A DNA stretch of 61,556 nt, counting the filler, from Hausera hauseri (lineage: Eukaryota), in assembly GCA_046269625.1 (NCBI GenBank). It is 11 parts of 11 records of this genome, joined end to end, with 100 filler letters (N's around TTAATTAATTAA, not from the genome) between each part and the next. Parts side by side here need not be neighbours in the genome. Positions count along the whole stretch, not along the records: positions 41,337 to 45,881 come from JBJURY010533454.1; 10 more parts are not named here. One strand, given 5' to 3'. The notes below the pieces were generated by a model. The model did not search any database. It was not told the DNA's origin and was given only the letters and a program-made list of their open reading frames with translations. The position numbers and the translations under genes were made by a program. Shown here one piece after another: positions 14,646 to 59,295 of the stretch. The number at the start of each line of letters is the position of its first letter. Positions within the stretch are counted from its first letter, which is position 1.

Positions 14646-16790
14646 TCTAACCTTCAATGCCCCGCAATATCCATCGGCGCCATGTTGCTTGCATACAACA
14701 GAAGTGGTCTCTTGCTACGCGCGGAAGCTAACTCACAGATCAACTGCACAATGAACGTCTCACTGGTAGGAGACCTATCTTTTGGGTTGTTCTTTAGTAT
14801 GATGGTCGAAAGTGGGAAAGAATTACTGATATCCACGACATCAAAAACTGTTGATTCATGTCAAGCCACCAATGCGACTGTTTCTACGTGCACGCTAACT
14901 CCCGCTATTGTTGTTGCATATTCCGTGCCCCCAGACTCACAGATTGATGCGTTGTTGAGCATGCTAGTGCCTCAACTTAATAAGATGATACACAAGACCC
15001 TATGTGGTTACGTCAATGACATAGCGAACATTCTACGTAACAATTCGATTTCTCCGGCATCCCCTCTACCACAACTACAAAAAGGTGCCACACCATTGTC
15101 TGGTTGGGCAATATCGCGGTCGATTGTTTCAGTATTGAACAAGGCACCACGTAACTTTGGAGTTGTATTCCTAGCCTCATTGATATCTGCTACCGGGTTA
15201 CATGTCAACGTGACAAATAAGCAGGCGTTAGATATTTCGAGTCAGTACGGAAGGCTGCAGGTCTCTGCCGGGGGTGGTGCCAGTTTGGATCTAGTGGTAC
15301 CGAAGCTCATCTGTGGTGATGAGTATGACTGCACGTTAGTGAAAGGTATTGAGTTGATCAATATCAGGATATTGAATGGGGGTGGGTTGGAGAAACTAAT
15401 ACAGGAGGGTGTTAATTTTGCACTGCCGTTAGTGAATAAGATGTTTTTGAACGACAAGCGCGTCAACATTGTTGTTGCAACAGAGACTTTTAAACCTCCG
15501 CTATGGGTACTTGCAACTTTCATTCCATTGCTGTTTTTTTTTTCAGTTTTCTGTATTGTGTATGGCAGTTACCGGACCCTCCGATTGCACTCAGCGACAA
15601 TGGGTGACGAACCTACCACCGTAAACAAAACGCGCGTAATTTGTGAGAATGTATTTGTGACGGTAGCGTGTACCGGTGTCGCCTGCATGTTCATATGGTC
15701 GAACACAACGACGAATGCTGTCATTTTGATTGCAGACAACATACCTTACCTTTCCTTTTCCTTGATTGAGGCTGTGAAGAGACTATGGGAGGGTGGGCTG
15801 AAACCTCTTGCTGTTCTTATTTGTTTGTTCAGTTGTATCTACCCGTATGTGAAGCTGTTGTGTATAATATTTTTTGTTGTGATTGTCCGCCAGCCGCATC
15901 ATGTTGTCTTGACTATTATTGACATGTTTGGTGTCTTCTCGTTTCTCGATTTCTTTGTGATGGTTATGCTGGAGAATGCTTTTGCTGTTGAAGGACTTGT
16001 CGCAGTTCATCTGAAGCCATCATTCTATGTGTTTTTGTTCGCTACATTCATGTCTGTATTAATTGGCAATATTGTGACACATGGGATTTTTGATGGTGTA
16101 AATGGTTTGTTTAAGGCGGATGCTCCAACGGTGATAAAGAAGCGTGGCAAACCTACTCATGATGATGATGATGATGACTTTGAAAGCAATTATTATAACG
16201 CTATTGAGGACGGTGATACTGCTTTTGTTGATTGGTCAGTGCCGCGTGAAGCATCGGCACAGCGTGGTTATTTGATGAGAATATTCCTGAAGTGGGACTG
16301 GTGTTGTGCTCTCCCATCACTCGCAATCATTGTTGTGTCATCCGTTCTCATCATGATCTTTCCGATTGTGCGCTTTAACTTCACAGATATTGTTAGCTCA
16401 ATATATGGGAAAGAGCAGTATCGGTCATTCTGGACTCTTTTTAGCTCGTCAAATGCATATCTTCAGGCTCTTGCCGTATTGATTGTTGTTGCGGCACCAA
16501 TAGGATACGTTCTCTTTACACCACATATGGAATTACTTGGTGCTTGGTGTGCTATCACTGTGTTCCTGCTTTCCTGCATTGCCGGAATGTTGCAGCTTGG
16601 ACAGACCATTACTTTTGATTTCATGGGTCGGTGGGTATCACTCTATGCTGTTACATGCACGCTCTTGTGGCCTCTGATACTTATGGTGTTCGCAATGCTT
16701 GTAATGTGGATACACTCACTGAGACAAATAACCGGTGTCAACTTACTCTCCGTTCTCAAGGCGAAGATCATTAGATTGAATGACTCGTGA
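14646..16790 (+). CDS. Kinetoplastid-type PqiA/LetA-like multipass membrane protein with N-terminal BPI/TULIP-like ectodomain (5'-truncated)
   Basis: PqiA motifs FSLIEAVKRLWEGG..LFSCIYPYVKL..IDMFGVFSFLDFFV plus a second PqiA-like half. The frame is open to the contig edge (SNLQCPAISIGAM aligns with the paralog). Confidence 0.8.
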   Translation, partial: SNLQCPAISIGAMLLAYNRSGLLLRAEANSQINCTMNVSLVGDLSFGLFFSMMVESGKELLISTTSKTVDSCQATNATVSTCTLTPAIVVAYSVPPDSQIDALLSMLVPQLNKMIHKTLCGYVNDIANILRNNSISPASPLPQLQKGATPLSGWAISRSIVSVLNKAPRNFGVVFLASLISATGLHVNVTNKQALDISSQYGRLQVSAGGGASLDLVVPKLICGDEYDCTLVKGIELINIRILNGGGLEKLIQEGVNFALPLVNKMFLNDKRVNIVVATETFKPPLWVLATFIPLLFFFSVFCIVYGSYRTLRLHSATMGDEPTTVNKTRVICENVFVTVACTGVACMFIWSNTTTNAVILIADNIPYLSFSLIEAVKRLWEGGLKPLAVLICLFSCIYPYVKLLCIIFFVVIVRQPHHVVLTIIDMFGVFSFLDFFVMVMLENAFAVEGLVAVHLKPSFYVFLFATFMSVLIGNIVTHGIFDGVNGLFKADAPTVIKKRGKPTHDDDDDDFESNYYNAIEDGDTAFVDWSVPREASAQRGYLMRIFLKWDWCCALPSLAIIVVSSVLIMIFPIVRFNFTDIVSSIYGKEQYRSFWTLFSSSNAYLQALAVLIVVAAPIGYVLFTPHMELLGAWCAITVFLLSCIAGMLQLGQTITFDFMGRWVSLYAVTCTLLWPLILMVFAMLVMWIHSLRQITGVNLLSVLKAKIIRLNDS

Positions 16791-17435: not shown

Positions 17436-17498
17436 CTGTCATCCGGCTGCGCATACGAACACTATTACGGTCAACATAAACGCCACTACCCCTGAAAG

Positions 17499-19610
17499 AT
17501 GAGCTTGATGTGCCTGTCAGTTTCCCTACTGCTTACACTGGCGAATGTGTTCACGCACTTGTCTCTCCCTAGCCTTAATGTTTCTATCCCTGTTGCTGCC
17601 CTGGGTGGAAATATTGGATTGTCTAACCTTAAATGCCCCGCAATATCCATTGGCGCCATATCGCTTGCATACAACAGAAGTGGTCTCTTGCTACGCGCGG
17701 AAACGAACTCACAGATTAACTGCACAATGAACGTCGCGCTGCCAGGAAATCCACCAGCGCCAGTTTTTTTCAGTGTTGTCATGAAGGCTGGGCAGGACTT
17801 GGTTATATCCACGACATCAAAAACTGTTGATTCTTGTCAAGCTGTGACTGCCACTGTCTCTAGGTGCACGCTGGCGCCTACCTTTGTATATATGAACTAT
17901 GCGAACAACTCAGAAATGAATGCCCTCATCACTCAAATTTTACCGATGATAAACTCGCAAATACGCGAAAAACTGTGTAGTTATGCGCAGAACATCAGTT
18001 CGATCCTTACAAACAATAGCACTCCTCCGACAACCCCTCAGCCGCCACTCGAGAAAGGTGCAACACCTTTGTCTGGCTGGGCAATAGCCCGGGCGATAGT
18101 GACAATAATGAACAATGTGCCAGAAGTGTACGGTGTAAGGTTGCATGGGTCGCTGGTTTCCCTTACAGGGTTACATGTCGAGGCAAATAATAATAATGCC
18201 GTAAATATTTCGAGTCAGTACGGAAGGCTGCAGGTCTCTGCTGGGGGTGGTGCGAGTTTGGATCTAGTGGTACCGAAGCTCATCTGTGGTGATGAGTACG
18301 ACTGCACGTTAGTGAAAGGCCTCGCTGTGATGAATATCAGGATATTGAATGGAGGCGGGTTGGCAAAAGTAGTGCAGGAGGGTGTTAATTTTGCACTGCC
18401 ATTGGTGAATAAGATGTTTTTGAACGACAGGCGGGTCAATATTACTGTTGCAAGAGAATCGTCTAACCATCCGCTATGGGTGATTGCTACTTTCATTCCA
18501 TTTCTGTGTGTTTTTGCAGTGTTCTGTATTGTGTATGGCAGTTACCGGACTTTCCGATTGCAATCCTCTACCGAGAATAATGAATTTATCTCTGAGAGCA
18601 AGGTACGCGTGATTTGTGAGAATGTGTTTGTGACGGTAGCGTGTACCGCTGTCGCCTACATGTTCCTATGGTCGAATACAACGACGAACGCAACTATTGT
18701 AATCGGGAGGAATATTCCTTATTTTTCCTTTTCGCTCGTGAATTCCGTACAAGACTTATGGAACGCTGGGCTAGTGGCCCTCTCAGTTTTGGTCTGCATT
18801 TTCAGCGGTATCTATCCGTACGTGAAACTGTTGTGCTTAGTTTATTTCTTTGTAATTCTTCGGAAACCAACTCATGTGTTGCTGAAGACCATTGACATGT
18901 TCGGTGTCTTCTCGTTTCTAGATTTCTTTGTAATGATCATTCTCAAGAACGGACTCGAGGTTCCTGGCGTTGCCGAGGTAGTCATTGGGCCGCCATTCTA
19001 TCTATTTGTGATTGCGACAGTTTTGTCTGTCTTGCTTGGCAATATTGTGACATATGGCTTTTCGCTCAATTGTGGCCGGCCAACCGTTAAGCAACTGAAG
19101 GAGGCATTTTCAACGTGGGATTGGTTGTTTGCGCTGCCATTAACCTCCGTTATTGTGGTGTCATCTGTGCTCATTATGGTGTTTCCTATTGTCCGTTTCA
19201 ACATTTCCGGTATATCCGCCGCAATCTTTGGGGATTCAATTAACAGGACATTCTGGACGCTTCTGAATTTGTCTGACGGCTTCCTCATCTTTGTTGGGTT
19301 ATGGACCGTTCTCGCTGCCCCGGTGTTGTATGTTCTCATTACACCTCACCTGCAGTTCATCGGGTCATGGGCTGCTACCACAGTGTTCTTGTTGGCCTGT
19401 CTGGCTGGACTATTGCAGTTGGAACAATATGTAAGCTTTATAATAGGTGGGTCACTGCGTTCTTTGTTCAATGTTACTTGCCATCTGCTCTGGCCTCTTA
19501 TTCCAATGACGATTTCGATGCTTGTGACATGGGTTCGGTTTTTACGGCAGATTCTTGGTGAGGAACGGATAGCTGCCTTAAAGGCGAGACTCACACATCG
19601 AAACGCGTAG
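17499..19610 (+). CDS. PqiA/LetA-like multipass membrane protein with signal peptide and BPI/TULIP-like ectodomain (paralog 2)
   Basis: Signal peptide MSLMCLSVSLLLTLA; many N-x-S/T sequons; VSRCTL...INSQIREKLC Cys pair; FSLVNSVQDLWNAG, FSGIYPYVKL, FSFLDFFV; second half IGSWAATTVFLLA. Confidence 0.85.
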   Translation: MSLMCLSVSLLLTLANVFTHLSLPSLNVSIPVAALGGNIGLSNLKCPAISIGAISLAYNRSGLLLRAETNSQINCTMNVALPGNPPAPVFFSVVMKAGQDLVISTTSKTVDSCQAVTATVSRCTLAPTFVYMNYANNSEMNALITQILPMINSQIREKLCSYAQNISSILTNNSTPPTTPQPPLEKGATPLSGWAIARAIVTIMNNVPEVYGVRLHGSLVSLTGLHVEANNNNAVNISSQYGRLQVSAGGGASLDLVVPKLICGDEYDCTLVKGLAVMNIRILNGGGLAKVVQEGVNFALPLVNKMFLNDRRVNITVARESSNHPLWVIATFIPFLCVFAVFCIVYGSYRTFRLQSSTENNEFISESKVRVICENVFVTVACTAVAYMFLWSNTTTNATIVIGRNIPYFSFSLVNSVQDLWNAGLVALSVLVCIFSGIYPYVKLLCLVYFFVILRKPTHVLLKTIDMFGVFSFLDFFVMIILKNGLEVPGVAEVVIGPPFYLFVIATVLSVLLGNIVTYGFSLNCGRPTVKQLKEAFSTWDWLFALPLTSVIVVSSVLIMVFPIVRFNISGISAAIFGDSINRTFWTLLNLSDGFLIFVGLWTVLAAPVLYVLITPHLQFIGSWAATTVFLLACLAGLLQLEQYVSFIIGGSLRSLFNVTCHLLWPLIPMTISMLVTWVRFLRQILGEERIAALKARLTHRNA

Positions 19611-20103: not shown

Positions 20104-21775
20104 GCTCCTGAGTCTATAAGGAAGTCGATATGTGAAGTATCTCTGCATAACAGTACAGCTTTCAACAGAAAGACTGCAGAGGCGGTGTTGAAACGTCCAG
20201 AAGATTGAGCGATATTGCCTGCGCCAGAATGTGCCGTAAAATTTGGCGGCATTATTAGTCTTTGAAGTTTTTGGAGAAAAGGAAGAAGAGGAAGAAATGC
20301 GAGGAGATTATCGTTGTAATGTTTACAACCAGGCACGCATGATCTAATCTGTGACTGAAACTTATTGTGGTAGACACAAATAGGGTTGTCCACAGCGTAC
20401 CGTTTGCTGTAGAACTGACAACCCAAAAAGCATTTCCTAGCATCCCTTCGAAATCGCGTGTGTCAGAAACAAGTCATGCGTCCGCTAGGTGAAATGGATC
20501 GAGCAGAATGTCTGGAAATGGTTCTCTCCCTTGAAGATGTAATTTCACTTCGTCGAGGCCCATTACGATTATTTAGTTGGGTAGTAATGGCCGAAATCGA
20601 CTGCTGTAACTTGTCAAACTGTTGCTGCATCATTTTCAGTTGTTTAGTAAAAATATTGTGTCTGTAATTGGAGCACAAGTGGTTGCAGCCGCAATAGGGA
20701 GAGAACTGTTGGTATGAAGAATCTCAAAGGATTTGTCAGCCATTATTGCCTATTTTTCGATAGCAGAAGACTCGTCAACAACGGTGCGTAAGGCTCTGAT
20801 TGAGCTGGGCAAAGACGATAAGAAATAACGGCGAATTAAATCCGCATTATTCGTAGGTGTCACTCCTAGCGTGCTGAGCTTCAGAATGGCCATTTGGAGA
20901 AAGTCGGATGGCTTTTGGCTTCCTATCGCGTGGTCATTAAAGTACTCTTGAATTATATTGTCAATCGAAGGATCCGTGACATGCAGTACAGCTTCACAGA
21001 GAGTCTCGTAAGGTGTCGAGGATTTTAGCAGCTTGTAGATATTATTAATCTGCTGCTTGACGTTGGCAGGCAGAAGAATTAAAAGGCTATTGGCTCGCAC
21101 AAAAGAATCAGTAATTTTGCTCGATTTTAGCCACTGTTGGCGGAATTGGAGCCGTGGTTTGCTGGAGTTGTTTTTGTCGAGGAAAAATTCCACACAAGGT
21201 AAATTTAATGACCCTCGTGACTGTTGGGAAGGTGATAAACGATAGACGTTGCCTGTACTTGTAAATTTGTCATCCGAGAAGGATGGGTTTGGGTCCGATC
21301 CACCTCAAAAGCGAAAATGGAGCACCAGGTGGATGATGGGACGTTCATGGTATGTGAAAAGGAAAAGAGAGTCAGAAGGATGTATTATAAGCCCTTGATA
21401 TGTGAAATAGAAATCAGAAGTGTTATATGATGAGGACAAAGCGTTATATAAGAACTGTGCTGTCTCGTTGAGTGGAGCTTTTAAGGTTGTAATATGTTGA
21501 TTGTAGCTAAAGACCAGGAAGGATAATTGTAATGAGTTCGTCCCAGGGGAACGATGAAATGCACGAGGGGCTTGGGTGGTTACCTTTTGGGTTAAGAAGC
21601 GGTTCGAGCGTACAGCAGGGATAGCGGTGACAAGTATTGAATGAGATGAAAGAAGATCTAAGGTTTTTGAGCTCAAAAGGTTTTCAAAATTGAGATTGGT
21701 GTTGGTTATCAAAGATTTATGAGAGCGCAAAAAATGGCCGCACTGGTGGGCGCAAACAAATGAAAAAAACTTCAC
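20104..21775 (-). mobile_element. CsRN1-like Ty3/gypsy 5' part: UBL-GG-Gag (two CHCC motifs)-protease; degenerate
   Basis: UBL ..FYFTYQGLII..IIHLVLHFRF*GG is in frame with Gag (TPYETLCEAVL, IGSQKPSDFL, FLSSLPSSIR). CF*HTRF..ARKCFLGC and CVYHNKF..RSCVPGC follow, then protease FLIDSGA at the contig edge. Confidence 0.85.
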
Positions 21776-21994: not shown

Positions 21995-24900
21995 TTAAGG
22001 CCACTTTGGTCTTGCCACGAACAAGCTGCTGCTAACAGACAGGCTCGCCGCCACAAGTGAACATCCTTTTTTTCGATTGGCAGCTGGATAAAAAACAATG
22101 TTATTCACGGCTTGAATTGGTTCAAATTGGACAACACATTTATCCAGCAATGATGCAAATGTGTGAATTCGATTATCATTTTGCTTACGCCCATCTTCTG
22201 AATCAGATTTGTCTCTTGAAGTATTTGACTTCCATGTTAACAATTGATGAGGAGTAGACAACTCGAAAACATTTGTTATCAAAACACATGCTTTTCTCCA
22301 AATATCCGAACTGAACTTAACATTCGATATAATTACTGTTTCCAGACAACTTGTGTAGAACCTAGCTAACTGCTCGTGATCTTGTAAACAACACCACTTC
22401 AGTTTATTGAGCAAGTCATCCAGAAGAGCTGTGTGTAAAACCTAGAAATACTGCAAAAATACATTAACAACAGCATGAAGCGTATGATTGCAAGTGGTAT
22501 TTAACCATTCACTTCTGTCGTTCAAAGAAAAATCTTTGGCTGAAACATGCGTTGGTCAGGTAATACTACTCGCTGCCGGTACATGTTGAAGTATCCGAAA
22601 GACTAAATTAAAATTATCCTGCCACCAACGAGACCTGAATCCACTTCCGTAACCTTTTATTATTCCAAAGAATACTGTCAAGCCTCTCGTACGAACGTCA
22701 AGTTTGCAGTTGCTAATCACTCTAAAAAGTTCGCATAGAATTGGCATCCAGCCTTTTATCCTAATAGTATCGTCATCATCAATTTTATCATATGACAAAA
22801 CCGTGCCGAACTGCTCTATAGGACTGAGGAAACTTTCTTATGACGAAATTTCTTTGAACAAATGACCTTGCTCTTCAATTAATCTGACACACTGTCGAAT
22901 TAATCGTATAGCTTCCATGTTAATGTCCGGAAAATTTGTGTTACAAGCAAATCTTGAAAGGCTTTTCGCTGAATTTAGAAACGAATCCTGTACTAAATGA
23001 AATGAAGTCTTAAAGACGTCTTTCACAACAAAAGATAGAGTCTCGAACGCCATTGCAACGATTAGTTCCTGCTCAAATAATGTACCACTAGCAGCCCGTA
23101 AGAACACCATGAGAAAATTAGTCCATTCAGAACGAATGTTGCTCCAGTGAGATTGTACAAATTGTGCGACACAACGAACAACCACGTCATCCACATTTTC
23201 TACAAATTTTCTTTGCCTTCCATAACACTGACAAATGGCCTAAGGAAGTCTTTTTGAAAATGAAAATAGGGGAATTCACACTTTTCAATATATTTCCCTG
23301 CTAATTGCCGTAACGAATCCATAGCGAATATTGCAACGTCTTCATTAGACGACCTACTAGCATCTGTAAAATGTTCACCGATTATTTGCCACACGCAAGA
23401 CCATTGAAGACGTATTCTTCCCATATTGTAATAAGCTATTTTTACAAGTGTTTGTAAACTGAATATTCGAGGCTGAGGTAGAAAAAGTTCATCTTTGTTC
23501 ACCTGGCATAGAGCTTTGACAAAGTCAACAATCGCGTCTCCATCCAGTCTGACAGAACCAGTAAAAACTTTATCAACTGCTACGATAACACTTTGAGAAC
23601 CAGTTTCACCCATGACTTCTTTAAGTAAGGCGATATTCTTTTGTCGATCAGCTAATAAAATTGTTAAATTAACTGTAGAAATCCCGTCCACATCCGAGAA
23701 GCTTGATTTAGAAGTTTTTGATACCTGGTTGCCAATATTTTGTATATCATCGGATTTCGTACTAGTTTTTCGGATATCAGCATCAAAAATCTTCTTTGAA
23801 AATATTTGAGTTGCAAGACTCTCTTGAAGCACTTTTGGTGGTCCGGTACTACCGATCAATTGGGCTGATTCAAGTTGGGACATACACCGGAGTATTTCTA
23901 ACCAGGAAGTTCCAAGATAATTTCCATCCGTATGTGCAACAGATAATAACGTTTCAATTGTATCGATATTTTTTGGCTTGATACCTTCGCTTGAACTTCC
24001 TCTTTCCAGATCCATGTTAAAAATACATGCTATTCTGATAGCACATCGAATGCCTTCCAAACAGAAGCGTGAAATATCCATATCATCACATTCCCGCAGG
24101 GTAACACTGAATGATGCTAAAAATGATCTCCATACGACTTTAAACATATGTTTTGCATGTTCTTAATGCGTAGCACTAGTTAAATCGGACTCGACGTGGG
24201 AAATTGATTCCATCACTTCTTTTGCAGCTTTCGATAATTCCTCCATTTCTATATTGAAGAGAATATTTCGATACTTTTCCGAAGATGATTGTTACTATCA
24301 ATGAAACTTACATGTTTTCGGTCAACGGTAGATTCCTTAACTTTTATTTCATTCTCCGCAATTTCATCATAAATCTTTCCGAGATATTCAACGTCCAGAT
24401 CACGGCTTTCACTAATACCACGATTCATTTTTATGTACGCATATTTGCGCATGCGATTTTTGTTTTTTATTTGCGAACTATGAAGATCAGTGGTTAGCAT
24501 GATAATAGAATACGCTAGAACGTATGCCGTATCAGCAGATTTAAATGCGGATTCATTGGGTTACACTCGCAAAACCGAGACGCAAATTTTCCCATCAATC
24601 GATCATTTTTCTGAGCTTCGCATGGTAGACGAAATCCGGACAGAAATTCCCGAAGAGGCGACACAAAATCCTTTCCGGAAAAGTCTAACTGATCCACGTA
24701 TGCATACATGACCTCGATATTGTACTTGTTATTTTCACCAAGAAAATCTCCGATGGCCGTTTTGTCAAGTCGCTCGTCTTTGTGCAAAAATTCCGCAATG
24801 TCATCCACCGTTGTTCCAAGTAAATCCTGTCGTTGTAAATAGTTCAGACCCTTCAGCGGGTACTTGTTGAATATCCCAATGCCGTGTTCGAACATTTCTT

Positions 24901-26285
24901 TCTGTTGTTTTCTGCTCGCGAAATGTTCGGGATTATCCGGTGTATTTTGCGTGACGTTTCCTACTGGATGATTCGTGTAGTTTACCAAAGACGACTGTGA
25001 GGAACTTCGGGAATTGATACTGCTGGTACTTTCGATTTTTGTTAAATTGCTTTGATTCTTTTTACCGGGTTTCGGTGCAACTCCACTGCCGATGACGCCC
25101 TCGTGTCGTTCCTGCTCGACGCCGAAATACGACTGAGATTCGGGACTGATGTAGAGTTCGTTAGACCATTCCACCATGCATTGGACGATATGACAAAGAC
25201 AGTCAAGCGCCTTAAGTCGCAATGTCTGTTGGTTTGTGTTGACATTACCTGGCGATTTCAATTGGGCTATTTTCTCCAGACTCTTCACCAACAAAACAAA
25301 AATATTCGCCAGACTAAATTCACAATCGTAATTGAGATAAATGTCCACGACGCATTGTGCATTCATACAAATACGTTTCAAAGCTTCCAGAACAAGATCC
25401 TTATGAACGAACGAACTCCGAGGTGATTCAAGAATGAACAGGAAAATTTCCTTGAAAAACACTTCGTTCTGCCGTTTTAAATGCTGTTTAAAATTGGATA
25501 ATAATGAGAGAAAAATGGATAGAGATAATTCGAATACTTCAGGAATCGATGAAACGCCGTTTTTTGATAAAGCAACACAGAGATACTGCCGAATGGCATT
25601 GATGAATATTTCGCTTTGTTTAAAAACCGGACCGGCATTTTGTAGAATATTGAGTAATAATTCCAGAGAGAGGATTTTCGAACGTAAATCATGGGATTTT
25701 GGATCGGGAATTCCATCGGGGAGGGCTTTCATTGAGAGACGACACAGACTACAAAAAATAAGAAAGGCATCATTATGAGACGCATGAGCAAAATTTTTAC
25801 GCTTAACAGATTGCGAATTGATTGTCTAAAGGCTCCTGACTTTCACCATCACAAAGACTCTCTCTACTTTCAGTCTTAGCTTTGTCAACATTAGACAAAG
25901 CGTTGTCAATTATTTTATCCACAATTTCACTAACCACCTGCCATGAGTTTTCTTCCGATTCCGTTGTTCCATTATTTTCATCTATCAACGTGTCTTCTTT
26001 GTCAATTCTTTCTGACACATCAGCAATACTTTCGTCTATTTTCATCACTTCCTACATGGTTTCTTTTTCCATTTTATTAAAGATGGAATTGATCATCTGA
26101 GTCAGAGATGCTTTAGCAGTTGTTTGGTTAACCTAATCTTTGCTAGCTAGATAAATGCCAAAGCACGTGCGGACCATGTTAATCAGATTATTTTCATGAA
26201 CTTCTAAAGTTGGATTGATCACAACTGTAAGAATACCTTTAATGATTTGCAATTGTACAGTATCACCTGATTGACCGTTTTGACG
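21995..26285 (-). pseudogene. ARFGEF1: Brefeldin A-inhibited Arf-GEF (BIG1/BIG2, Sec7 family), intronless and disrupted
   Basis: [18 protein letters not shown] (HUS box), Sec7 [14 protein letters not shown] and [44 protein letters not shown]. Multiple stops and frameshifts. Confidence 0.92.
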
Positions 26286-26385: not shown

Positions 26386-26462
26386 CCTACGCAATGTTCA
26401 TTTCTCACTTTCCTTACAGCCTTGTCTTTTGTCTGTTCGTCGGTAATTATAGCCACTATTCG
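26386..26462. repeat. 77-bp direct repeat identical to 26926-27002
   Basis: Encodes RIVAIITDEQTKDKAVRKVRNEHCV twice, 540 nt apart and in frame, at the contig end. Confidence 0.9.
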
Positions 26463-29400
26463 GATCACCAAGTGTAATATTACTTTCCTTAATTCTTCCT
26501 TAGTATTCTCTACCATAATTTCCTCGATGAAAACTTCACCAGGTAAGTTGCTTTTGTTTATTTTGAACCGAAATGTTCTCATTATCATTGCTGCGTCGTA
26601 TAATACCTTTTCTTTTTCATTCAACATCTCGTATCTTGGTCCCGAATAGTTCACTATTTTTATAATGTTTCTCAGCAACTTGTTTAATTCTTCGCTATCG
26701 AAGTTAATCGCGGGCATGGAAAATTGCCTTGGTTCTTGTATCAAGGCTGCATTTTGGTCAATATCATCTCTTATTTTCCTCGGCCTTCCAACGGGTCGTT
26801 TCTGTTTCGGCGCAGTTGGTATTGCTTCGCTAATTGGTACTAGATTCTTATCGTATTGTTCCTTATCTTCCTCACTTTGGAGGTAGTCAAAATACATTAC
26901 AGGGTCTCGGATTCCCATAATACGTCCTACGCAATGTTCATTTCTCACTTTCCTTACAGCCTTGTCTTTTGTCTGTTCGTCGGTAATTATAGCCACTATT
27001 CGATTTGATTCCTCTGGAAAAATTCCAACGTCTATTAGTAGCTCGGGTTCGTCCAGTATCCTACCTCGGAAATATAATCGATAATTTACTTCATCTTTTC
27101 CACCGTTTTGTACTATCCACTGGTTTACTTCTCTAACCGATGTTATCGTTGTACATTAAATTTCTCTCTCTTCCATCCATTCAGCTGATAATTTTACTTT
27201 AATCGTCGTTTCGGGTTTAGCTTTCAAGAAATCAGCGTATTTCTTTATCAATAGTCTGGGTACTGAGATATAAACGGCATTTCCGCCTGAGAGTTTGGTT
27301 AATGTAGGGATCAATTGTCTCAGTTTGCTCGCCATCATGTTGACGTTGATCTGCTCAGTTAATTCTTTCTCGGCCCGTTCGGGATCCAAGAGCATATCCA
27401 TATCAAATCGTCGGTCTGTTGGAAGAATATCCTTTTTTGAAGTTGGATGGCTGTTTTTGGGTTTTGGTTCTACACATCTTCCAAATAAGCATCTCATCCT
27501 TTGTCATCTGTGACGTCTGAAAGCCCATAATCCAACAATACCGTGGACGCCCTTCGTACATTTTCGCGTATCTCGTTTAATCTCAACTGTACTTCTCTCA
27601 TTAAGTTGGTTCGAAACTCTGCTCCGTTTCCACACGCAAGTTGTATCGTTTTTAATCTTGGTCCTAGTTCATCTGTAGGGAACAATACTTTTCTTTCGTA
27701 ATCTGTTAATTCGGTCGTTACATCCGTTAACCATCTTTGTAAGAATTCTCTTTTATTCGTTAACTCTGATTGTGTGATCTTATATTTATTCTTATAAGTC
27801 TCTGATTCTTTGCCTAATTCATCTAGCTTTGTAGCTCTTTGCTTTGTGCGAATTCGCAATTCGTTTATATCTTTAACTTGAGTTGTCAATTGTCGCGTCT
27901 TGTTGTCATCTATCTCTGTCATTGTTGATATAAGCAATATTAAGCCGTGCATTTCTTTTAGAGTTTTCGAATCGGGATCTATTTCTTCAATTAGTCTCTT
28001 TACGAATTTAGCCTTGTCTGATGTGAGGTGACAATCTTTGGTTATTTCTATTAATTCAGCGCGGCAATTTTGGTCGGTATCCAATGCCCACTCAAAAGGA
28101 CAATGTAGATATTTTAGTACTTCTTCTAACGCGATTTGATGATTTGGGCAAATATCCAATGTCGATAGATCACATATGGATATTTCATCTATGGACCATG
28201 TTGCCAAATGTCGTAAACCTTCTAGGCGGACACATTTTAGTCTCATCGATAAGGAGGAGATCTTTTCCTGTTTCGCCGATAATTCCATTTCTTCGATCGT
28301 GGTATACAATTCTTCTGTGAGTTTTATTTCCTAATCTTTACTCATAAATCTTAGTCTCAATAACGCATTAAATTCAACTCGAAAGTTTGCCTATGTTTTG
28401 TAAACATCTAGGTTACGGAGTATTTCTTTTAGCTATTGTTTTAATATCGGTTTACATTCTGAATATTTCCTTAGACGATATTTCGTTAAACTCACTAATA
28501 TGTCTAACAGTTCAATCCATTCTTTGAATTGGTTCTCTATCATTGGTTTCGCGTTTATTACATTCTCTAACTGTTCATAGGCATCATTCAATTTATCGTC
28601 CGGACCTTTAATATAGTCCATTACTCCTTTAACGTAGTTAACTTCTTTCTTGTATTCGTCCAATTCTAAAATATATGTTTTCGTTATGTTTTGCACTTCT
28701 TGGTCCTCTGCATACGTTATTTTATTCCTATATCTGTAGATTTCGGAGCGCCTTTTTTCTTGCGAGGATATGAGAATTCCTATGTCCGCATATTCTTTAG
28801 GTGCACTGTACGCATCTTACACATTTCCATTTTGAGAGGAATGTCTACCGGTTCTATGCCTAGTATTAAAAATTCGTTTTCATCTAATTCGTATATTGGT
28901 TTATTTTTGAGGTGATAGATTACTGCAGTCTCTATTTCTACCATTAACATCTCTAAGTTCCGTTTAGTTCGCTTCTGTTTTGGATCCGTTTCTAGAGTCT
29001 TTAGTAATCCTTGGGCAGTCGCCACTTTACTCTTAATTTCTATTTCTTGATTATACCATGTGACGGTGAAGTCGATTCAGATTTTTATCCATGAATATAG
29101 TTTAGTCTTCCATTTTTCAATTGACTTCTCCATAATTTCATCCATTTTCTCTGGTTCCTTCTTCCTGCTAACGTCTTCTTCAAGGTACCATTTAAATTCT
29201 TTATACATTCTTTCGGCGAACTGCTGTTCTTTTCCAGACACATGTACTTGAGTTTTTATATGGTTTAATTCTTCCAGATTCCGACGCATCGTCCCTGTAT
29301 CTCTTGGCGCATCCTAATTTCATTTAATTTATCTGCATTTTACCAGGATTTTCTGATAATCCACACCTTTTCGTCTAGCCTTTTAATTCGCTCCGTGTCA

Positions 29401-30494
29401 TCAGTCTCGCCTTCGCCATCGGGTAATAGACATATCTCGTTTATCTCGCTGTTCGTGTCTCCTACTGTTACGCGTGTATTTGGAATATCTGGAACTTTAG
29501 TAAACTCCACATCGGGAGTGTCTAAGTTTGATATGTCCTCTTCTCGGACTTTAGTTTTCTCTGCATTGTCTCTTTTTAATGGCGATCTTGATCGACCCTT
29601 TGGCTTCTTTTTAAGCGATGGATTACGACCTCTATTTTTGTTATTTTAAGGACTAATGGATCTATATATTCACTCTCGATTTCGTCAGCCACATCTTGAC
29701 GTCCTTCTGTCAGGGTTTCACATTCAGCGTCCAAGTCTACACAGGGTGATACTGCTGCTATTTCGCTTTTGTTCACCTCTTTTGTCTGAGCGGGCTTTCC
29801 AGGCACATTCTTCTTGCGAACCATATTACTATTGTCTGGCGCTATTAAGTACTCATTTTTTTAAAGGTTCAACTAATCCGTGATATACTTCTAATATTCG
29901 AACGTTATCTTTATATTCCTTTCGAGCCTTCAGGATTTGCGGATTATTTGTTTCTCGTTGGCTTTTCAAATATCCACGTGAATCATGAATATCCAAAATT
30001 GCGTCTATGTCGCCTCTGGGACCATATTTCGCCTCTAGATCTTCCTGCGTCTTAATCATACTTGTCTTAGTCGGTTCGGTAAACGAAACGCTTGCGGATT
30101 TGTTCTAGCTATGTGACCTTCCTTACCACATGTATAACATATTAAGTCCTCATTTGTGGGTGATTTTGAGCGGTTGTCGCTCCTAGAATAGCCCTGATTT
30201 AAAGGTTTTATCCGACTACTTCCGCCGTATTTGTTTTCGTTGTTCCTAAAGTCATTATATCTGTTTCCGTCCTTATATTTAAAACTTTTGTTATTGCTCT
30301 TATAACCATCTTGGTTCGAGTTGTAGTTCGGCTTTGCCGCGTTCATACTATTTAAATTCCGATTATTGTCGAAGCTTTTGTTCCCATAACACGGATTTTT
30401 ATCCATCCTATTATCGAAATTTCGATTTCGATTATGTTCATGGAATAGTCAACTGCTTCTGTTTCTATCGCTGCGCTCGTTTAGTTCGGCATTC
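26386..30494 (-). mobile_element. Degenerate retroelement-like long ORF: Gag zinc knuckle followed by >1000 aa of coiled-coil/unknown sequence containing a UBL domain
   Basis: An N/R/S-rich linker then CYTCGKEGHIAR (30103-30140). All downstream ORFs are co-oriented and joinable by stops or frameshifts. UBL at ~26985-27210. Confidence 0.6.
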
Positions 30495-41336: not shown

Positions 41337-44300
41337 TTTTACTGTTTCCATCTTCTTGATAATGTAAGTTCCTCGGTATTTTAATTATACTTAATCTTTC
41401 CATCTCTTTTGCCATTTTTTAATTTTCTCGTTCAACTCTATCGGAACCTTCTCGTCCCAGTCTACTCCCATTATTCATAACTGCTGTAAATACATTTTAC
41501 CTAACAGCGTATGACAGCTGAGAAATCCCAGTGGATCGAAGACCTTTGCCAGAATATTTAACAATGTCCTTTTTGTTATTTCCAATCCTTGCTTGACTCT
41601 GTTTTCAAATTCGAATTCGTCGTTTTCAACTCTCCACTTCATTCCCAACGTTTTTGCAACTACGTTCGTCTTTTCCACTATATTAAATTCTTTTGCTCGA
41701 CTGGAGATAGGTATTAAATTTATCAACTCGTCAGAATTCGATACCCATTTGTGAGGTTCCATTCCAGCTGTTTTCCAAATCTCGTTTAGTTTGTTATACA
41801 GTGATATCGCTTTCTTTTCAGTACAGACTGAATCGATGCAATCATCCATGTACGTAGAACACTCAATTGTTCCTACAGCTCTAGGATATTTATCCTTAAA
41901 CTTTTCGGCATTATACCTTGAAATTAATTGCGCCAAAAGCGGGCAGGCATTCAACCCGAATACCAGACGATTGAATTTATACGTCTTGAGTCTTCCATCC
42001 TTATACCATAGGAATCTCAAGTATTTCCTATCTTCTGGTTTCACCTTAATTCGCAAAAACATTTCTTGAATGTCACATATTACTACCCATTTACGTGTTC
42101 TTATTCTCAATAGTATATCTACAATGTCCAGTTGCAATTTTGGACCGGGTTCTAGAAAGTCATTTAGACATTTTCCCCGATATTTCGAAGCGGCGTCGAA
42201 AACTATTCGACATTTTGTGGTTTCCCTGTCAATTTTCATGACAGGGAAATGTGGCAAGAGCCAAGCTGATTCCCGTTCCTCATGCTCTTCCATCACTCTA
42301 TTATATTTTTCTCCAGTATGGGCTGTTATTACCTTACCATAGGCCACCTTAGCCTTTTCATCCTTATCCAACTTATGCCTTAGAATATTTAGTCATTTTT
42401 GCGCCAACCATTCATTTCTTTCGATTTCAGGTCGTCTTCCCCCTTTCTAGGGTAATGGTAACCAGTACCTACCTTCTTCGTAGGTCGTGTCTTTCAATAC
42501 CCGTCCTATGATCTCCTCTTCTTGTAAGCTTCTCTCAGACACCTTTGAGTCAAAGTTGAACTCAATCTCCCACAAACGGGTCAAGTCGTTTTGGATCTCT
42601 TCGGTTCTAGTCCAGAATGTCTTCACAAAATTACTATTTATTTTTCTTTTTCCTTCCTTTATTAATCCCACACGGGTCCAGCCCAAGGGAGTCAACCGTG
42701 ATACTGGTTCACCTTTTTTGAAATAGACCTCCTCAATTGACTGGTGTAGCTGTATATAATTGGCCCCTATGATACCATCTACTTGTAATCTGTGGGACAT
42801 CGTGGCAAATTTCAGACTCCTCAGATGAGGCCATTTTTGTTTCTCTATGAATAAGTTCACGGCTCCCATTTTTCCAGTTGGATTTCTCATGCCAACGCCA
42901 CGAATTTAATATCTATTGATTGGTCTGTACTCGCCAGTCCCAATTTTACTCTGTCGATAGACATCTTTGTTTTTTCCCTACGACAACCGTCACCGTTAAT
43001 CTCTCCGTTTTTCTGCCAACGTCTAATTCATCGCATACCTTTAAATCGATGAAGCTTTCCGTGCTGGCATCGTCTAAAAACATTGTTGCTTTTTGCCGTT
43101 TCGTTCCGTTTTTCAGCCATACTTCCACTGTTCTCAGAGCTACGACCTCTTCTTTTTCATTTATCTTCTGAAAGCCTTGGGTTACATAGGTTCTAACGTC
43201 CTTTTGCTGATTTTCAACCCCTCCTCTGTTTTTCTCCTTTAATGTGCCAAGCAACGATACCTCTGGGTCTACATTCGTCATTCTTTCATAAGGCTTTCTG
43301 GCTTCATGCTCCAGTCTATTTTTTTACCATTGTTGTTATCATTATCTTTTTTGCCACCCTTTTCTGTAGGAACTTTCATTCCTCCCCATACCTACATTTT
43401 TTTTCAAAGTACTTACATATCCTTTCCTGATCGTCTTTACTAGATTCGTGACAATATTTACAGTTATCCCCGAACTTGCATTGTTTATTTTTATCATAGT
43501 TCCAACATCTTTGGAACCGAGCTCCTAGCTCTGTATTGGGTTGACTGATCTGTATCCACATTTTATCTTTTCTATCATTTTTTTTGAAATTGGAACTTTT
43601 GAACTTTCTCTTTGCTGTATGCGCTTTCTTTGGGAAGTATGATCGCCCATCTCCTACTGAGGCATATCGGCCACCTTGATCATATTAAATGTTTCTATTC
43701 CTCTTACTCTTTCAATGACATTTCTCCTGATCATCGCTTCCTTCTCCACCTAATTTTTCAATTCTTCAACGGTTCTGTCTAACTTTTTTCTATGATATTT
43801 CTTTCCCATAGTAATACAATTGACTCTGGGAGTTTCTCCATAAGGTTATGATACAACAAACCTCCACCAAGTTTTATTGTTCTTCCTAGATTCTTCAATC
43901 TTAATATTATACCGTCTAACAATGCTACGAACTCATCCAGCCCGATGATGTCTCCTTCTTCTATCGTCTGGAACTTTATAACTTCGTTTATAAACGCCGC
44001 ATAGGAGCGCTGTTCTCCACCATAGTAAGAGTCCAATTTTTCCATGGATGCTCTATATCCTTCTTTTGATAGATCGAAATTTTCGACCAGTTTTTTCGGC
44101 TCTCCATACAAACATTGATTTAACTGTAGTTGTTTATATATGCCCGACATTGGAGTTTTGTGGATACACGTGTCAAATGTCTTTCTCCATTTATCGTATT
44201 CTTTAACTATCCCCCCCCGAACTTCGGCAACTCTAATTTTTGTAACTTTGTAAGATTACCCTTTCCCTTTTCTCCTCTTTCGATCTTCCGTTGACGGCCA

Positions 44301-45735
44301 TTAGTTTATTTTCTCTCGAAGTTCTTTCATAGATTATGGCGTTGATTTTTTCATTCTGATCATCTAGCTTCTACATATCGTTTTCCAGTAACGTGATGTT
44401 CTCCTTCAACTTTCTTGCCGCGGTAGCCAGTACACACAGCTCCCCTTGAAGTTCGGTGTAAGCTTTGTCGTATTTTTGATGATAGACTTCGTATTCTTGA
44501 TCACTCAAGCTCGCATCCATCAACTTCCTCCGAATCGCTGATAGATGATTTATAAATTTACGTCATTCCGACAGTCTATCTTATAATTCTTCTGTAGTCA
44601 ACTCGTTTCCACCTTTTAACCGCAAATGTAGATGAATGGTCGAACCCTTCTGGATATAGTATTCGCTAAGTTTTCGACAATCCTCAAGTTGTTTTCCGTT
44701 ATAAGTTAACCGTTGTTGTTTTGTCGGGATCCCTTCCCTTTCCTCAACTGCCGACTTCAGCTCTTCTACTTTGTCTGACGTTTTTACTAAGACCATAATT
44801 ATTTTCCCGAAATTGTCTCGAGAAATATCGTCGTTTTCCCCTCCTCTAATCTTGTTTTTTCCTCTTGCTCAAATTCCTTGAGGACGAGTTCCCCGCTTTC
44901 ATCCTTCTTATGTGACACCTGCAGTAATTGCGATTTGTCCCCTTCTGGTATGCATTCCGCCAATGTCTTTTTCCGCTTTTCACCTTGAATTTGTGGTTCT
45001 TGGCCAATCCTTCTAATTCGAAGTTCAACAATCTTGAACTTCGAATCTTTGTTGAATTCATGGGGTCCATTTAAATTTCCGTGGTAACTCGTCTCGAACG
45101 AGAACCCTTTTACAAATTTGCATCCCCAGTCAGTCGCCACTGATTCCGTCAATTGCTGTCTATTCTCCATTTGTTTAGAGACATAGACATACTTTTTCTT
45201 CCCTTTTAAATATTTATCGCCTTCGGTCCAAGATACCACAACTTTCAATATTAGCGTTGCCCTTGTAGAATAGTCACGATGTTTCATTTTATTCATTTCA
45301 CCGTTGGTCCTCCTCGTGCATATTGAACAAAAGGTTCGCGCTTTTATTCCAACATTCATACGGAATGAATAATCTCTGGAGACAAGGAGACCTCGAAAGA
45401 CCAAAACATCACGTAGATCGTACCTGCGGATCACGGTGCGGAGCACAAACTACGCTCTGCTACCATAAAATGGAAGTTTTATATAGACGCTACGTAACAT
45501 GTCACCATAAATTAGAGATTTTATATGAAATAAATATAGTGAATTATACATATAAACTTCCAGATAAATGACTGATTAGTCTCCGATACCATCTCCCGAT
45601 ATAATTCTTACCATCTCTTCTCTGGGCCCATACAAGCTTTTTCTCAAGGTATATCCTTACTTACTTCTACTTGAAGAATATTGTGCCACATAACTGTTCA
45701 AATATGCACTCATTACAAGGTTACATACATTACCA
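41337..45735 (-). mobile_element. BEL/Pao LTR retrotransposon 5' part: LTR, PBS, ubiquitin-Gag (CCCH fingers), protease, RT
   Basis: LTR TGG..CCA at ~45471-45735; PBS TGGTAGCAGAGC (initiator tRNA-Met-like) at 45454-45465; Gag KLELPKFGG, YKQLQLNQCLYGEP; protease ALRTV..FLDDASTESFI; RT LPHFPV..CRIVFDAAS, LVFGLNACP, YMDD, KVFDPLG. Confidence 0.93.
44608..44834 (-). pseudogene. Ubiquitin domain embedded in the BEL/Pao Gag ORF
   Basis: Restoring one A in GGAAAATAATTATG gives 76 aa, [76 protein letters not shown]. By hand count 41/76 residues are identical to ubiquitin. Confidence 0.93.
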
Positions 45736-45746
45736 GTAGAAAGAAA

Positions 45747-45881
45747 GTGTGCCGCTAGGCACCGTTGCTAATGCACTTTTGCACATTCCACTTATCGATC
45801 ACTGCACAGTGCACTATTGATCGAAGCTATCGGGACAAAGTGCTAATCGATAGAACATATCAAGTGCATCAAGTAGTGCAC
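45747..45881 (+). repeat. Fragment of the Polinton family A terminal region flanking the BEL LTR
   Basis: GTGCCGCTAGGCACCGTTGC..CGGGACAAAGTGCTAATCGATAG matches 37858-37990. Confidence 0.85.
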
Positions 45882-55980: not shown

Positions 55981-57339
55981 ATTTGTTCGTTTAGAAGTAA
56001 AGATCAATCCGAGCAATTGACTTTCCACGGTTAAGTTGTAAATAATCGCAATTCCACACAAATTGCGTAAAAGTTCGAGCAATATTCGTTTTGCACAGTG
56101 GTTCGTATTATTTGATTTAGTTCCTTTTCCCTCTTGTAGTAACTGATTACATAAAACGAAAGTCATTCGATTGAGCACATTGTGTTTGAGTAAAATTTCT
56201 AGTGAGGTATTCAAAAAATTTCTGATTTGAAACGACGAATCAAGAATTGTCTTGTTTTGAACGGTACCTTGTCGTACAAATTGTAAAAGGATTCTCGTAT
56301 AGTTCTTAACCCACTGAGCGTCATCACGCACCATGTCACGATGGAATGTTCCCAATTTATCAATGGTAATTGGATGACACTTGCCATATCCGTTGATAAG
56401 AAGGTCGATTCGATGTAGATTGTCACAGTGAAAACCGTTTTTGACATATTTGATATTGTCTTGAGCACAAATACTACCATAAATATATTTAAAACACATT
56501 TCCCAAAGGTCTAAAGCAATGGCCCAATTACAATTATTCGTGATATGATAATCTAAAGACAATGCAGTCGTCAGTTTTGTTTCGTAAATTGGATGAAGAA
56601 TCCAAATAGCTTGGGCTTGATTTAATTTGATATTAAAGAAAGAAACATTGGCATTAATACAATTATCAATGAGGCAGACGGATAAAGAATCCGTTGGATT
56701 GCAGTGGTCAATATGAATTTCGCTAAAGAAATTTGAAAAACGCTGAAAAATGAATTTTGATTCCGATGGGTCCTTTTGACTTTCATTGGCAATTGAGGAC
56801 CAAAGGCAATTCGTTATTCCAGACTGATGTGAGGCGTATGTGGTTAATATTTTTTTAAGTAAGAGATTCTCGTGCATTTTCATTGTCAGCATTATAACAG
56901 TAGATATTCCGTGTCCTGCCGAACCGACAACAGAAATAGTCCTCGAATGACCAAGACGACTCGAAATTTGTAAAACGAGGTTCTCCAACTGCTTCGCTAT
57001 GTACATATTGCGTTCGTCAAGCAGTTCGTCAAATATTAATGAATATTGTGTATTGCAACATTTGGTTTTCAACGGCTGTATAACGTGAGGTATCATGACC
57101 ACAATTCCCGATACAGAATCAATAACACGACGCCGTCGTCCATCAATACTGGTAGATGATGGGACAAATTCTACAACAACACCGAAATTCAAATTACGAT
57201 AACGTACCAAATGTGGACCTAATTTATACAATTCTGTGTGGCATTTGGTCTCAACAAATCCAAAATTTTCCTTCAATATAACAACGGTGAAACGAATTGT
57301 TTTTTTTTGATATTGGACAATTATCAATCTGCTCATCAT
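55981..57339 (-). CDS. Chimeric ORF: CSDE1/UNR cold-shock remnant plus degenerate dynein heavy chain AAA-like region (runs off contig)
   Basis: VVILKENFGFVET..NLNFGVVVEF (CSDE1 VATLKDNFGFIET..LELGDMVEY); LVLQISSRLGHSRTISVVGSAGHGIS (decayed P-loop resembling dynein AAA2). Confidence 0.5.
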
Positions 57340-59227
57340 TTCCTTGGTGCACCGACAACAATTTATCTGCCATTGTCAATGGTATTTTATTATCTGGTAA
57401 TGTGCGTGTACGAATTTTCTTCTTTTTATCTGATATTTTCCTGCCATTATGATTATTAACTGTCGTCCGTTGTTTATCCATAATTGTAGTACTAACAGAT
57501 TTCAGTCCAATGACAAATGCCGCAGGTGGCAAATACTGACGGACAATTCTATCCGGACATCCAAAACTCACCTCATCTCCTTGTTTCACGATCTCTCCAG
57601 GAAATTGACATACAATAATGCCGAGATCATACGGCATTCGAATGGCAGTTTGAATAGTGCCATGCAATGAACCAAACGGATACAATTTCAAGTGGTTCAT
57701 TTTCTCGTTGGATTTGACTGGCATGATTCGTATGGCCGTCGTTGTCACATTCGTCTGATTGCCAACAACCTTTGACACCTGGCGTGGAGTGTACTGATCG
57801 ATGGTGAATTTGAATGAAACGACATTATCGGGAGCCAAGCTGTACATACTTTTTTGCATAAGTTCTCCGGATATTTTGTTAACGGCTCGTTGGGTATATA
57901 GTTTACACAAAACACGATATTCAAAAATGCAAGAATGGCATGTCAAATGATCGGATAAAACTGATACATTCAAGGAAAACGTATCAATTATTTTTTTGGT
58001 TACATTTGACCAATACGATTTTATCCTCATTAAACTTATCAGTACATGGCGCACGATTATCGTCGACTGAAAATCGTCTTTATCCCTGGCATTACTGAAC
58101 ACAAAACGCATTATTTTTTTTGTAACTTTGCACTTTTCATTAACGATGGGAAAATTGTAAAATGAAACTGCAAATTGGTATCGACGGTTGTCGCGATCAA
58201 GACTGTTATACCAGGCTGCTGCAGCTGTCATCGGTCGCATAGTCGACGAAGTTCGACTGCCCATTTCCGTGAGTTGTGTCCGCTTTACAGTGATATTATC
58301 AATGATACATAACTGAGACAGTTTATCACTCAACGTCGACAAATTGTACTGTTCCTCGTTCACAACTGGAAAATCATTATTCCGAATCATCAATTCACAA
58401 ACACTGGACTCCGTAAGCATCAAAATGAGTTTGTTAAGATCGGTCAAATGATTTCGTGACAGATCTAGAACTTCCACATTGGGAAACGTCAGTAAAAGGT
58501 CTTTGATGTGTTCATCAGTCAACCCGTTGTTCGATAGATTCAAAAAATTTTTAAGCGAGCCAATGTTGTAGAAATTCGTTACGTCATTGAAACTAAGATC
58601 AATGGTCGTTAGGGAATTGTGATCTTTGATGCCACTGATGGTGTTGATTCGGTTATTGCTTAGGTTGATTTCAGTCAGCTTTTTGTTGATTGTTAGATCC
58701 GGTATGACTTCGATTTGATTATTGGAACAATGTAGTTCTTCCAGATTCGGCAAACAACTTATGAAAGTTATTGACGTGACTTTATTGAAACTGATATCCA
58801 AATACGTAATAGACGAGCAACATGATAAATGCCGATGAGTTAATTGCGTAATCTGATTGTTATCGAGTCGTAGAGTTTTTAATTTCCGACAGGCAATCAA
58901 ACTGTTCTCTTCAAAATTCGAAATTCTGTTGAACTGTGCCTGAAGACTGACAAGATCTCTAAGATTGTTCAATCCAGACAACGTTCGTAGACAATTGTCG
59001 AATACTTTAAGTTCTTTAAGTTCGGTAAAATACTGAAGATTTTCCAAAGACCGAATGTAATTCGATGATAAATCCAAAACTTTTAAATGTTTAAAATCTT
59101 TTAAATTGGGAATTTCAGCAAATTTCTGACAACGTAATTCAATCGTATAAATTCTCTTCGGATCGGTTTCACCGGATTGTTCAATAATTTCTTTGATTAA
59201 TTCATCTGTAGACTTTTCTGACACCAT
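57251..59227 (-). CDS. SDS22-type LRR protein N-terminus fused to CSDE1/UNR-like cold-shock remnants
   Basis: About 10 LxxLxLSxNxI repeats in aa ~25-290; RPMTA; then AIRIMPV, GIIVC, GDEVSF. Confidence 0.7.
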   Translation of the reverse strand: MVSEKSTDELIKEIIEQSGETDPKRIYTIELRCQKFAEIPNLKDFKHLKVLDLSSNYIRSLENLQYFTELKELKVFDNCLRTLSGLNNLRDLVSLQAQFNRISNFEENSLIACRKLKTLRLDNNQITQLTHRHLSCCSSITYLDISFNKVTSITFISCLPNLEELHCSNNQIEVIPDLTINKKLTEINLSNNRINTISGIKDHNSLTTIDLSFNDVTNFYNIGSLKNFLNLSNNGLTDEHIKDLLLTFPNVEVLDLSRNHLTDLNKLILMLTESSVCELMIRNNDFPVVNEEQYNLSTLSDKLSQLCIIDNITVKRTQLTEMGSRTSSTMRPMTAAAAWYNSLDRDNRRYQFAVSFYNFPIVNEKCKVTKKIMRFVFSNARDKDDFQSTIIVRHVLISLMRIKSYWSNVTKKIIDTFSLNVSVLSDHLTCHSCIFEYRVLCKLYTQRAVNKISGELMQKSMYSLAPDNVVSFKFTIDQYTPRQVSKVVGNQTNVTTTAIRIMPVKSNEKMNHLKLYPFGSLHGTIQTAIRMPYDLGIIVCQFPGEIVKQGDEVSFGCPDRIVRQYLPPAAFVIGLKSVSTTIMDKQRTTVNNHNGRKISDKKKKIRTRTLPDNKIPLTMADKLLSVHQGNDEQIDNCPISKKNNSFHRCYIEGKFWIC

Positions 59228-59253
59228 TGTTATTTTGTTATTTTGGTTTTGTG

Positions 59254-59295
59254 AATAAGAACTGTTTAATAAGAACTGAATAATAAGAACTGTTT
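59254..59295. repeat. 14-bp tandem repeat x3 just upstream of the LRR gene
   Basis: AATAAGAACTGTTT/AATAAGAACTGAAT/AATAAGAACTGTTT. Confidence 0.85.

Follow-up and report, generated by a model that had tools for sequence, protein, structure and literature searches.

What is a ubiquitin-derived domain doing directly upstream of a retrotransposon Gag: is it a site at which host proteases cut, a decoy that host receptors cannot read, or a captured fragment in decay? The question is raised by a locus in a 61,556-nucleotide stretch of the Hausera hauseri assembly GCA_046269625.1, hereafter the window. The window consists of 11 short contigs chained by ten N-TTAATTAATTAA-N linkers, so contigs flanking a linker are not to be taken as genomic neighbours. 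The ubiquitin-Gag element sits on the minus strand of the piece 41337-45881, where Pfam domains follow in the order ubiquitin, DUF1759, CCCH fingers, RT and Peptidase_A17.

Structure of the ubiquitin-Gag element

Read along the minus strand, the element opens with a putative 5' LTR of ~260 bases with TG...CA edges (45471..45729), whose outer edge is uncertain by a few bases. Contig depth in a public run (X1) rises from ~160 to ~74,000 in the bin 45408-45468, as expected of an LTR. No second LTR copy was found within the piece 41337-45881, and a 3' LTR is lacking because the piece stops at 41337. Just inside the LTR lies a TGG motif resembling a primer-binding site (45455..45465, minus), a putative match to initiator tRNA-Met; there are no tRNA genes in the window. 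An open frame of ~155 aa follows (44835..45296), a leader belonging to no known family and unrelated to the leaders of three relatives. It leads into the ubiquitin-derived domain (44608..44834), which ends in an L-K-G-G tail (44608..44619), the last glycine of which is followed by a predicted cut site for deubiquitinases.

Downstream, also on the minus strand, are a helical N-terminal region of Gag in the frame of ubiquitin residues 12-76 (44275..44607) and the Gag capsid core (DUF1759, 43785..44216; PF03564, E 4.8e-15), which in the model of a relative matches the PNMA2 capsid. CCCH-type zinc fingers detected with Pfam (43370..43513) occupy the usual site of the BEL Cys-His knuckles. Next come an aspartic protease region with a DDAST motif, split by a frame change (42489..43230), a reverse transcriptase with YMDD (41757..42128; PF00078, E 1.3e-11) and the start of the Pao Peptidase_A17/RNase H region (41412..41610; PF05380, E 5.2e-12), the rest of which is cut off by the end of the piece.

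A DUF1759-type Gag core is thus present, as is RT followed by Pao Peptidase_A17, both as in BEL/Pao elements. The order protease, RT, RNase H and integrase in one Gag-Pol ORF is seen in the relative P0157, the window piece stopping before the integrase. BEL/Pao Gag typically has three Cys-His knuckles, a trait absent from the window copy, which has CCCH fingers instead. From its domain sequences we identify the element as a decayed copy from a BEL/Pao-type LTR retrotransposon lineage, truncated by the contig end before the integrase, and class that lineage as a variant rather than a typical member.

Frame breaks and copy variation

A first reading made from the sequence alone (the sequence-only reading) described the ubiquitin as continuing in frame into Gag. 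This does not hold for the window copy, where the frame shifts within ubiquitin just after K11 (~44802-44805), three stops lie in the Gag N-terminal region downstream of the GG (44583, 44565 and 44373), and 8 stops and 7 frame changes interrupt the Gag-Pol path as a whole. The ubiquitin-Gag fusion is in frame in relatives only. The family is multi-copy in two public runs, with 912 (X1) and 98 (X2) contigs aligned. At the ubiquitin frame break, an indel relative to the window is seen in 3 X1 contigs and 2 X2 contigs, so that the break looks private to this copy. A programmed frameshift at this point, where there is a slippery-type heptamer, was considered and rejected in favour of decay, since the relatives are in frame there and the same contigs carry the indel difference. 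Among the 40 of 583 difference rows listed, none falls inside ubiquitin.

One high-depth X1 contig joins across 579 bases including the ubiquitin domain (44503-45083), with a side of only 36 letters. Summed contig depth is lower over the leader and ubiquitin than over Gag, depth not being equivalent to copy number. Some copies may lack the leader-ubiquitin part or carry a replacement of it.

The ubiquitin-derived domain and the leader

The Pfam match to ubiquitin in the window copy is strong (PF00240 at 44608-44834, minus; E 8.2e-21, 74 bits against a cut-off of 25.4). Each of the best 60 of 367 PDB matches is a ubiquitin or a ubiquitin-containing chain, and ribosomal ubiquitin fusions are present among the PDB matches. 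The changes L8>I, I44>T and V70>H, proposed beforehand, are all read in the sequence, as are the residues said to be kept (K11, K27, K48, K63, R72 and G75-G76). In addition, K6, K29 and K33 are lost, which leaves four of the seven lysines, R74 is replaced by K, and R42 and H68 are present. Identity over positions 12-76 is 34/65; all 15 listed core positions in this interval are hydrophobic, and so are positions 3 and 5. The fold and the C-terminal GG of canonical ubiquitin are therefore found in this domain, without its L8-I44-V70 patch and without its seven lysines and near-invariant sequence. The stretch described as a NEDD8-like helix is present, but it does not turn the domain into a NEDD8, since position 72 holds the arginine of ubiquitin where NEDD8/Rub1 has A72; the 60 best PDB matches are likewise to ubiquitin.

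The substitutions do not all have the same history. H70 is at least two base changes away from Val and fits the pattern of the family described below. T44 is a single base change from an Ile codon and could be private to this copy, whose Gag branch is longer than those of its sisters (0.41 against 0.07 and 0.21 in the 36-row tree). Given its decay, other substitutions of the window copy may be private as well.

The leader had been suspected of holding a second, divergent beta-grasp. The stretches quoted for it are present in the ~155 aa, but the fold finds no backing: there is no Pfam match, the best Atlas value is 0.82, the hhalign score is reached by 6 of 40 shuffles, and a single-sequence AF2 model of this N-terminal region has a pLDDT of 51 and lends the beta-grasp no support. 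Two fold searches gave no ubiquitin-like fold among the matches listed, the best being VIA (Z 4.7) and ferredoxin-like rows. The strand and helix order predicted in the low-confidence model is compatible with a beta-grasp. Leaders are 77-160 aa long in four members, partly low-complexity and without family match, and the four longer ones are mutually unrelated, with no significant similarity.

Relatives and phylogeny

Relatives were sought using Gag alone as the query, leaving ubiquitin out. The protein searches, through which the lineage was sampled, returned 2 matches, the best 150 of 3312, 8 and 13, plus cluster members. Among 128 sequences with a Gag-core match, nine elements have a ubiquitin-type tail directly 5' of Gag (the window, P0002, P0003, P0007, P0054, P0151, P0157, P0160 and P0164). 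In this small sample, P0003, P0151 and P0164 are cut at the 5' side but have the tail visible, the P0007 sequence begins within the domain, and that of P0160, which has E75, appears garbled. Of the relatives with a name, the closest belong to Mercenaria, Magallana and Montipora; together with the type of element, they suggest that the host is probably an animal. Scanning loci for further family members gave no confirmed relative, and the 159 ubiquitin loci scanned showed no Gag or Pol matches and then served as a control only.

The domain differs widely among these elements. In P0054 it is identical to ubiquitin at 61 of 76 positions, with L8 and I44 kept and T70. The Pfam ubiquitin cut-off is passed by P0007 and P0160, and there is no Pfam ubiquitin match in P0002 or P0157. 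The P0002 domain aligns colinearly with ubiquitin, and that of P0157 does likewise, by eye. P0157 is an unbroken Gag-Pol of 1926 aa with integrase and DUF5641, so the divergent form of ubiquitin exists in an intact ORF.

Tests on sequence alone are weak for these two domains. Their local scores are matched by 151 (P0002) and 20 (P0157) of 1000 shuffles; hhalign gives a probability of 7-8%, with none of 40 shuffles as good. AF2 predicts a beta-grasp for the P0002 stretch (pLDDT 61-76) with a flexible GG linker, and this model superposes on ubiquitin, ISG15 and SUMO chains at ~2.4-3.5 A over 71-80 columns, a likeness that leans towards ubiquitin because the input alignment held ubiquitin-like rows. 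With Foldseek, no row reached E 1e-3 for the P0002 model.

In a careful tree of Gag cores (36 rows, rooted on five distant BEL proteins), the nine elements and four proteins without a 5' part form one clade (99/98); 18 of the 99 other rows had been hand-picked for it. A quick tree of 117 rows splits the same group from the 99 others at 99 and draws five insect-type outgroup rows into the clade, where they sit on a very long branch. Within the clade, a subclade (100/99) contains the window, P0002, P0003, P0005, P0041, P0155 and P0157. Tandem CCCH fingers occupy the site of the BEL Cys-His knuckles in the window, P0003, P0047, P0155 and P0157. Members of the subclade that reach the zinc-finger region have them, with the exception of P0002, which lacks one, and knuckles are retained in P0007 and P0164 of the same larger clade. 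The papers listed in our literature search include none on CCCH fingers in BEL Gag.

The Gag cores of the junction elements are only 29-65% identical. The window domain shares 52% with that of P0054 (Gag 29%) and 19% with that of P0002 (Gag 65%), and because domain and Gag similarities run in opposite directions, repeated recapture of ubiquitin was considered. G64 and K74, shared by the window with its nearest kin, favour inheritance at uneven rates; a recapture in P0054 is conceivable. Taking trees and alignments together, we regard the ubiquitin fusion as a trait of the lineage.

Conservation of the domain

With columns anchored on the last G of each domain, the tail proves to be the best-kept part over the nine elements: L/I73 and K/R74 are found in 9/9, G75 in 8/9, G76 in 9/9 and the full [LI]-[KR]-G-G motif in 8/9. 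This agrees with the earlier suggestion of a processing tag. The I44/V70 surface is free. V70 is kept in 0/9, the residues there being H, I, A, T, L, L, K, L and T. I44 is found in one of the six members reaching it (P0054), position 44 being T in the window, V in P0007, S in P0157 by eye and S or L in P0002 depending on the register, with P0160 unreliable. Other functional positions are also variable, with R72 kept in 5/9 and lost in 4/9, K63 in 5/8, H68 in 3/8, and K48 replaced in P0007, P0002 and P0157. In 90 distinct natural ubiquitin units from 158 of the 159 control loci, I44 is present in 90/90 and V70 in 89/90, a contrast that is indicative only, since the search anchor selected near-canonical units.

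Loss of the I44 patch had been claimed together with retention of lysines. The first part stands, and because the surface is free across the lineage the loss is not only decay of the window copy; the kept lysines are no family trait.

The position of the tail is also informative. In eight relatives 114-128 aa separate the GG from the Gag core downstream, and in ten hand-picked relatives without ubiquitin Gag starts 111-155 aa before the core. At that position [LI][KR]GG occurs in 0/58 other proteins with enough upstream sequence. The GG thus sits where ubiquitin-less relatives begin Gag, and a cut there would fall at the point from which Gag naturally starts. The residue after it is N, S, S, S, G, M, A, N or Q across the nine, never Pro (0/9). 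The conservation columns, the hydrophobic core and the position of the GG indicate a lineage in which fold and cut-site tail are retained, with the receptor-binding face and the lysines left to drift.

A probable processing site and alternative explanations

We consider it probable, with some reserve, that the ubiquitin-derived domain is a processing site for host deubiquitinases. These enzymes likely cut at the GG, because the two-glycine tail is nearly always kept while the receptor surface drifts. In the lineage the single ORF has the order leader, ubiquitin-derived domain, GG and Gag-Pol, which would go back to an old capture of ubiquitin that probably happened once. Selection would hold the fold and the P4-P1 tail read by deubiquitinases, and the patch bound by ubiquitin receptors would drift freely or be selected against. 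Cutting after the GG would give Gag a near-native N-terminus before particle assembly. The protease of LTR elements generally works only in the assembled particle; with the host cut, the element would not have to wait for that protease and could carry a variable leader protein. Counting against this reading, R72 is lost in 4/9, and the very divergent domains of P0002 and P0157 may be poor substrates for common deubiquitinases.

A role in folding or expression is the alternative that survives best, and we hold it to be unlikely. Here the ubiquitin fold would raise the yield or solubility of nascent Gag, as has been proposed for ubiquitin in the ribosomal fusions, the cut would merely remove it and the leader would have no role. 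The kept fold and hydrophobic core agree with this, and so do leaders that are unrelated, partly low-complexity and without family match. However, ribosomal fusions begin with ubiquitin, whereas in four members the domain is internal, behind a leader of 77-160 aa, and relatives without ubiquitin manage. The cleavage step itself is common to this explanation and to the processing site.

Much less probable is the decoy or conjugatable ubiquitin of the sequence-only reading, in which E1 would charge the released domain and the host chains incorporating it would be unreadable to receptors. The window copy by itself would suit such a role, keeping R42, R72, GG, K48 and K63 without I44 and V70, and P0054 is still identical to ubiquitin at 61/76 positions. 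Nevertheless, this closest member retains I44, and the residues for charging and chain building are not what the lineage conserves (R72 5/9, K63 5/8, K48 replaced in P0007, P0002 and P0157). Since these residues vary, and since the domain of most members lies internally, preceded by an unrelated leader, the family offers the decoy little footing.

It is also quite improbable that ubiquitin is a passenger, a chance capture of its mRNA that is now eroding, with the I44 patch lost through post-insertion damage. The window copy is indeed dead (8 stops, 7 frame changes and the longer Gag branch), its T44 is one base from an Ile codon, and P0054 retains I44. But the junction has been kept over Gag cores that are 29-65% identical and in an unbroken Gag-Pol, H70 is at least two changes from Val, V70 is absent in 9/9 and the core is hydrophobic, so that as an explanation for the lineage passenger decay is, on the sequences compared, largely refuted.

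We give very little credence to a degradation timer, in which the cut would expose a chosen first residue setting the half-life of Gag. Processing of the SDE2 type exists, and N and Q, which are indirect degradation signals, follow the GG in 3/9; yet this residue varies and is mostly of the stabilising class, with no primary destabilising residues. An uncut ubiquitin mimic recruiting ESCRT or other ubiquitin receptors to assembling particles is just as implausible, for although ubiquitin on Gag matters in retroviral budding according to PMC3751857, such a mimic predicts that the I44 patch is kept and the GG lost, the opposite of what is seen.

Other features of the window

A gypsy-type element on the minus strand (20750-21560) contains a ubiquitin-like-looking stretch that ends in a stop codon followed by GG-S and is in frame with a DUF7041-like Gag (Pfam E 0.028). 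Its similarity to ubiquitin is weak (hhalign score reached by 1/40 shuffles, local score by 79/1000), and it may be a convergent case. This element seems to be inserted in the 3' part of a BIG1/Sec7-like gene (~22060-25825, minus; Pfam matches) that appears to lack introns and is interrupted by stops and frame changes. A further ubiquitin-like stretch, without GG (26900-27155, minus; hhalign 0/40 shuffles, local score 12/1000), ends a decayed element with coiled-coil and zinc-knuckle in the piece 26386-30494. Long uninterrupted ORFs are found at 1588-4539 (minus), 14598-16790 (plus), 17496-19610 (plus) and 57251-59293 (minus), and comprise an ASH1-like AWS-SET-bromo-PHD-BAH gene, two paralogous PqiA-domain membrane proteins and an LRR protein. 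The pieces of the window may be of different organismal origin.

Comparison with known systems and implications

The element shares with BEL/Pao (Belpaoviridae) a single ORF with DUF1759 Gag, aspartic protease, RT and Peptidase_A17, and differs in having a leader and a ubiquitin-derived domain 5' of Gag and, in one subclade, CCCH fingers. The fusion presents features of a processing signal, with a ubiquitin fold ending in [LI]-[KR]-G-G, no Pro after it and a predicted cut site at the natural start of Gag. Comparable signals are known elsewhere. In the pestivirus BVDV, where ubiquitin and ubiquitin-like inserts occur before NS3, host hydrolases cut after a captured ubiquitin and produce the authentic N-terminus of NS3, as described in PMC8310069 and PMC13517609. 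There too a captured ubiquitin lies inside a polyprotein and its cutting gives the N-terminus of the next protein; those captures, however, are recent, recurrent and limited to single strains, whereas here the fusion is fixed over a deep lineage, down to ~20% identity with the tail kept.

The ubiquitin-like domain of SDE2 is removed by Ubp5/Ubp15 (PMC8450105). Together with the ribosomal fusions eL40 and eS31, it offers the same arrangement, in which deubiquitinases cut behind a ubiquitin fold and release the working C-terminal protein, a cut that here is predicted. Those are host genes with the domain at the extreme N-terminus, whereas the domain described here lies internally in a mobile element, behind a variable leader. 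The 2A-like StopGo peptides that split ORFs in non-LTR retrotransposons (PMC3708506) are likewise separators within a retroelement ORF that depend on host machinery, but they act by ribosomal recoding in LINE-type elements, as against the proteolysis predicted here in an LTR element.

The papers listed in our literature search include none on ubiquitin fused to a BEL/Pao Gag; Repbase entries, subscription papers and supplements may contain such a description. The word ubiquitin has 0 occurrences in the main text of a BEL/Pao survey (PMC3118150), and the available text of two papers on LTR elements with extra domains (PMC9289625, PMC6431247) mentions no such fusion. The BEL/Pao element and the ubiquitin processing signal are each known; their lineage-wide combination appears to be undescribed.

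More tentatively, ubiquitin might serve in LTR retrotransposons as a host-cut, 2A-like cassette boundary, in front of which swappable N-terminal accessory proteins could be carried while native Gag is released, with a surface remodelled so as to stay visible to deubiquitinases and not to receptors. Such a boundary may even have arisen separately in the gypsy-type element of the window. We regard this wider reading as possible but doubtful.

If host deubiquitinases do cut these polyproteins, a host-protease step would be added to the biology of LTR retrotransposons, whose Gag-Pol processing is normally credited to their own protease, and LTR elements would have a general route for attaching accessory proteins. 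The family also provides naturally occurring ubiquitin variants that range from 80% identity to hardly recognisable forms, all with one feature kept, and how little ubiquitin a deubiquitinase needs thereby becomes directly testable. The I44 patch may have been shed to hide Gag from proteasome or autophagy receptors, a question that this family likewise makes testable.
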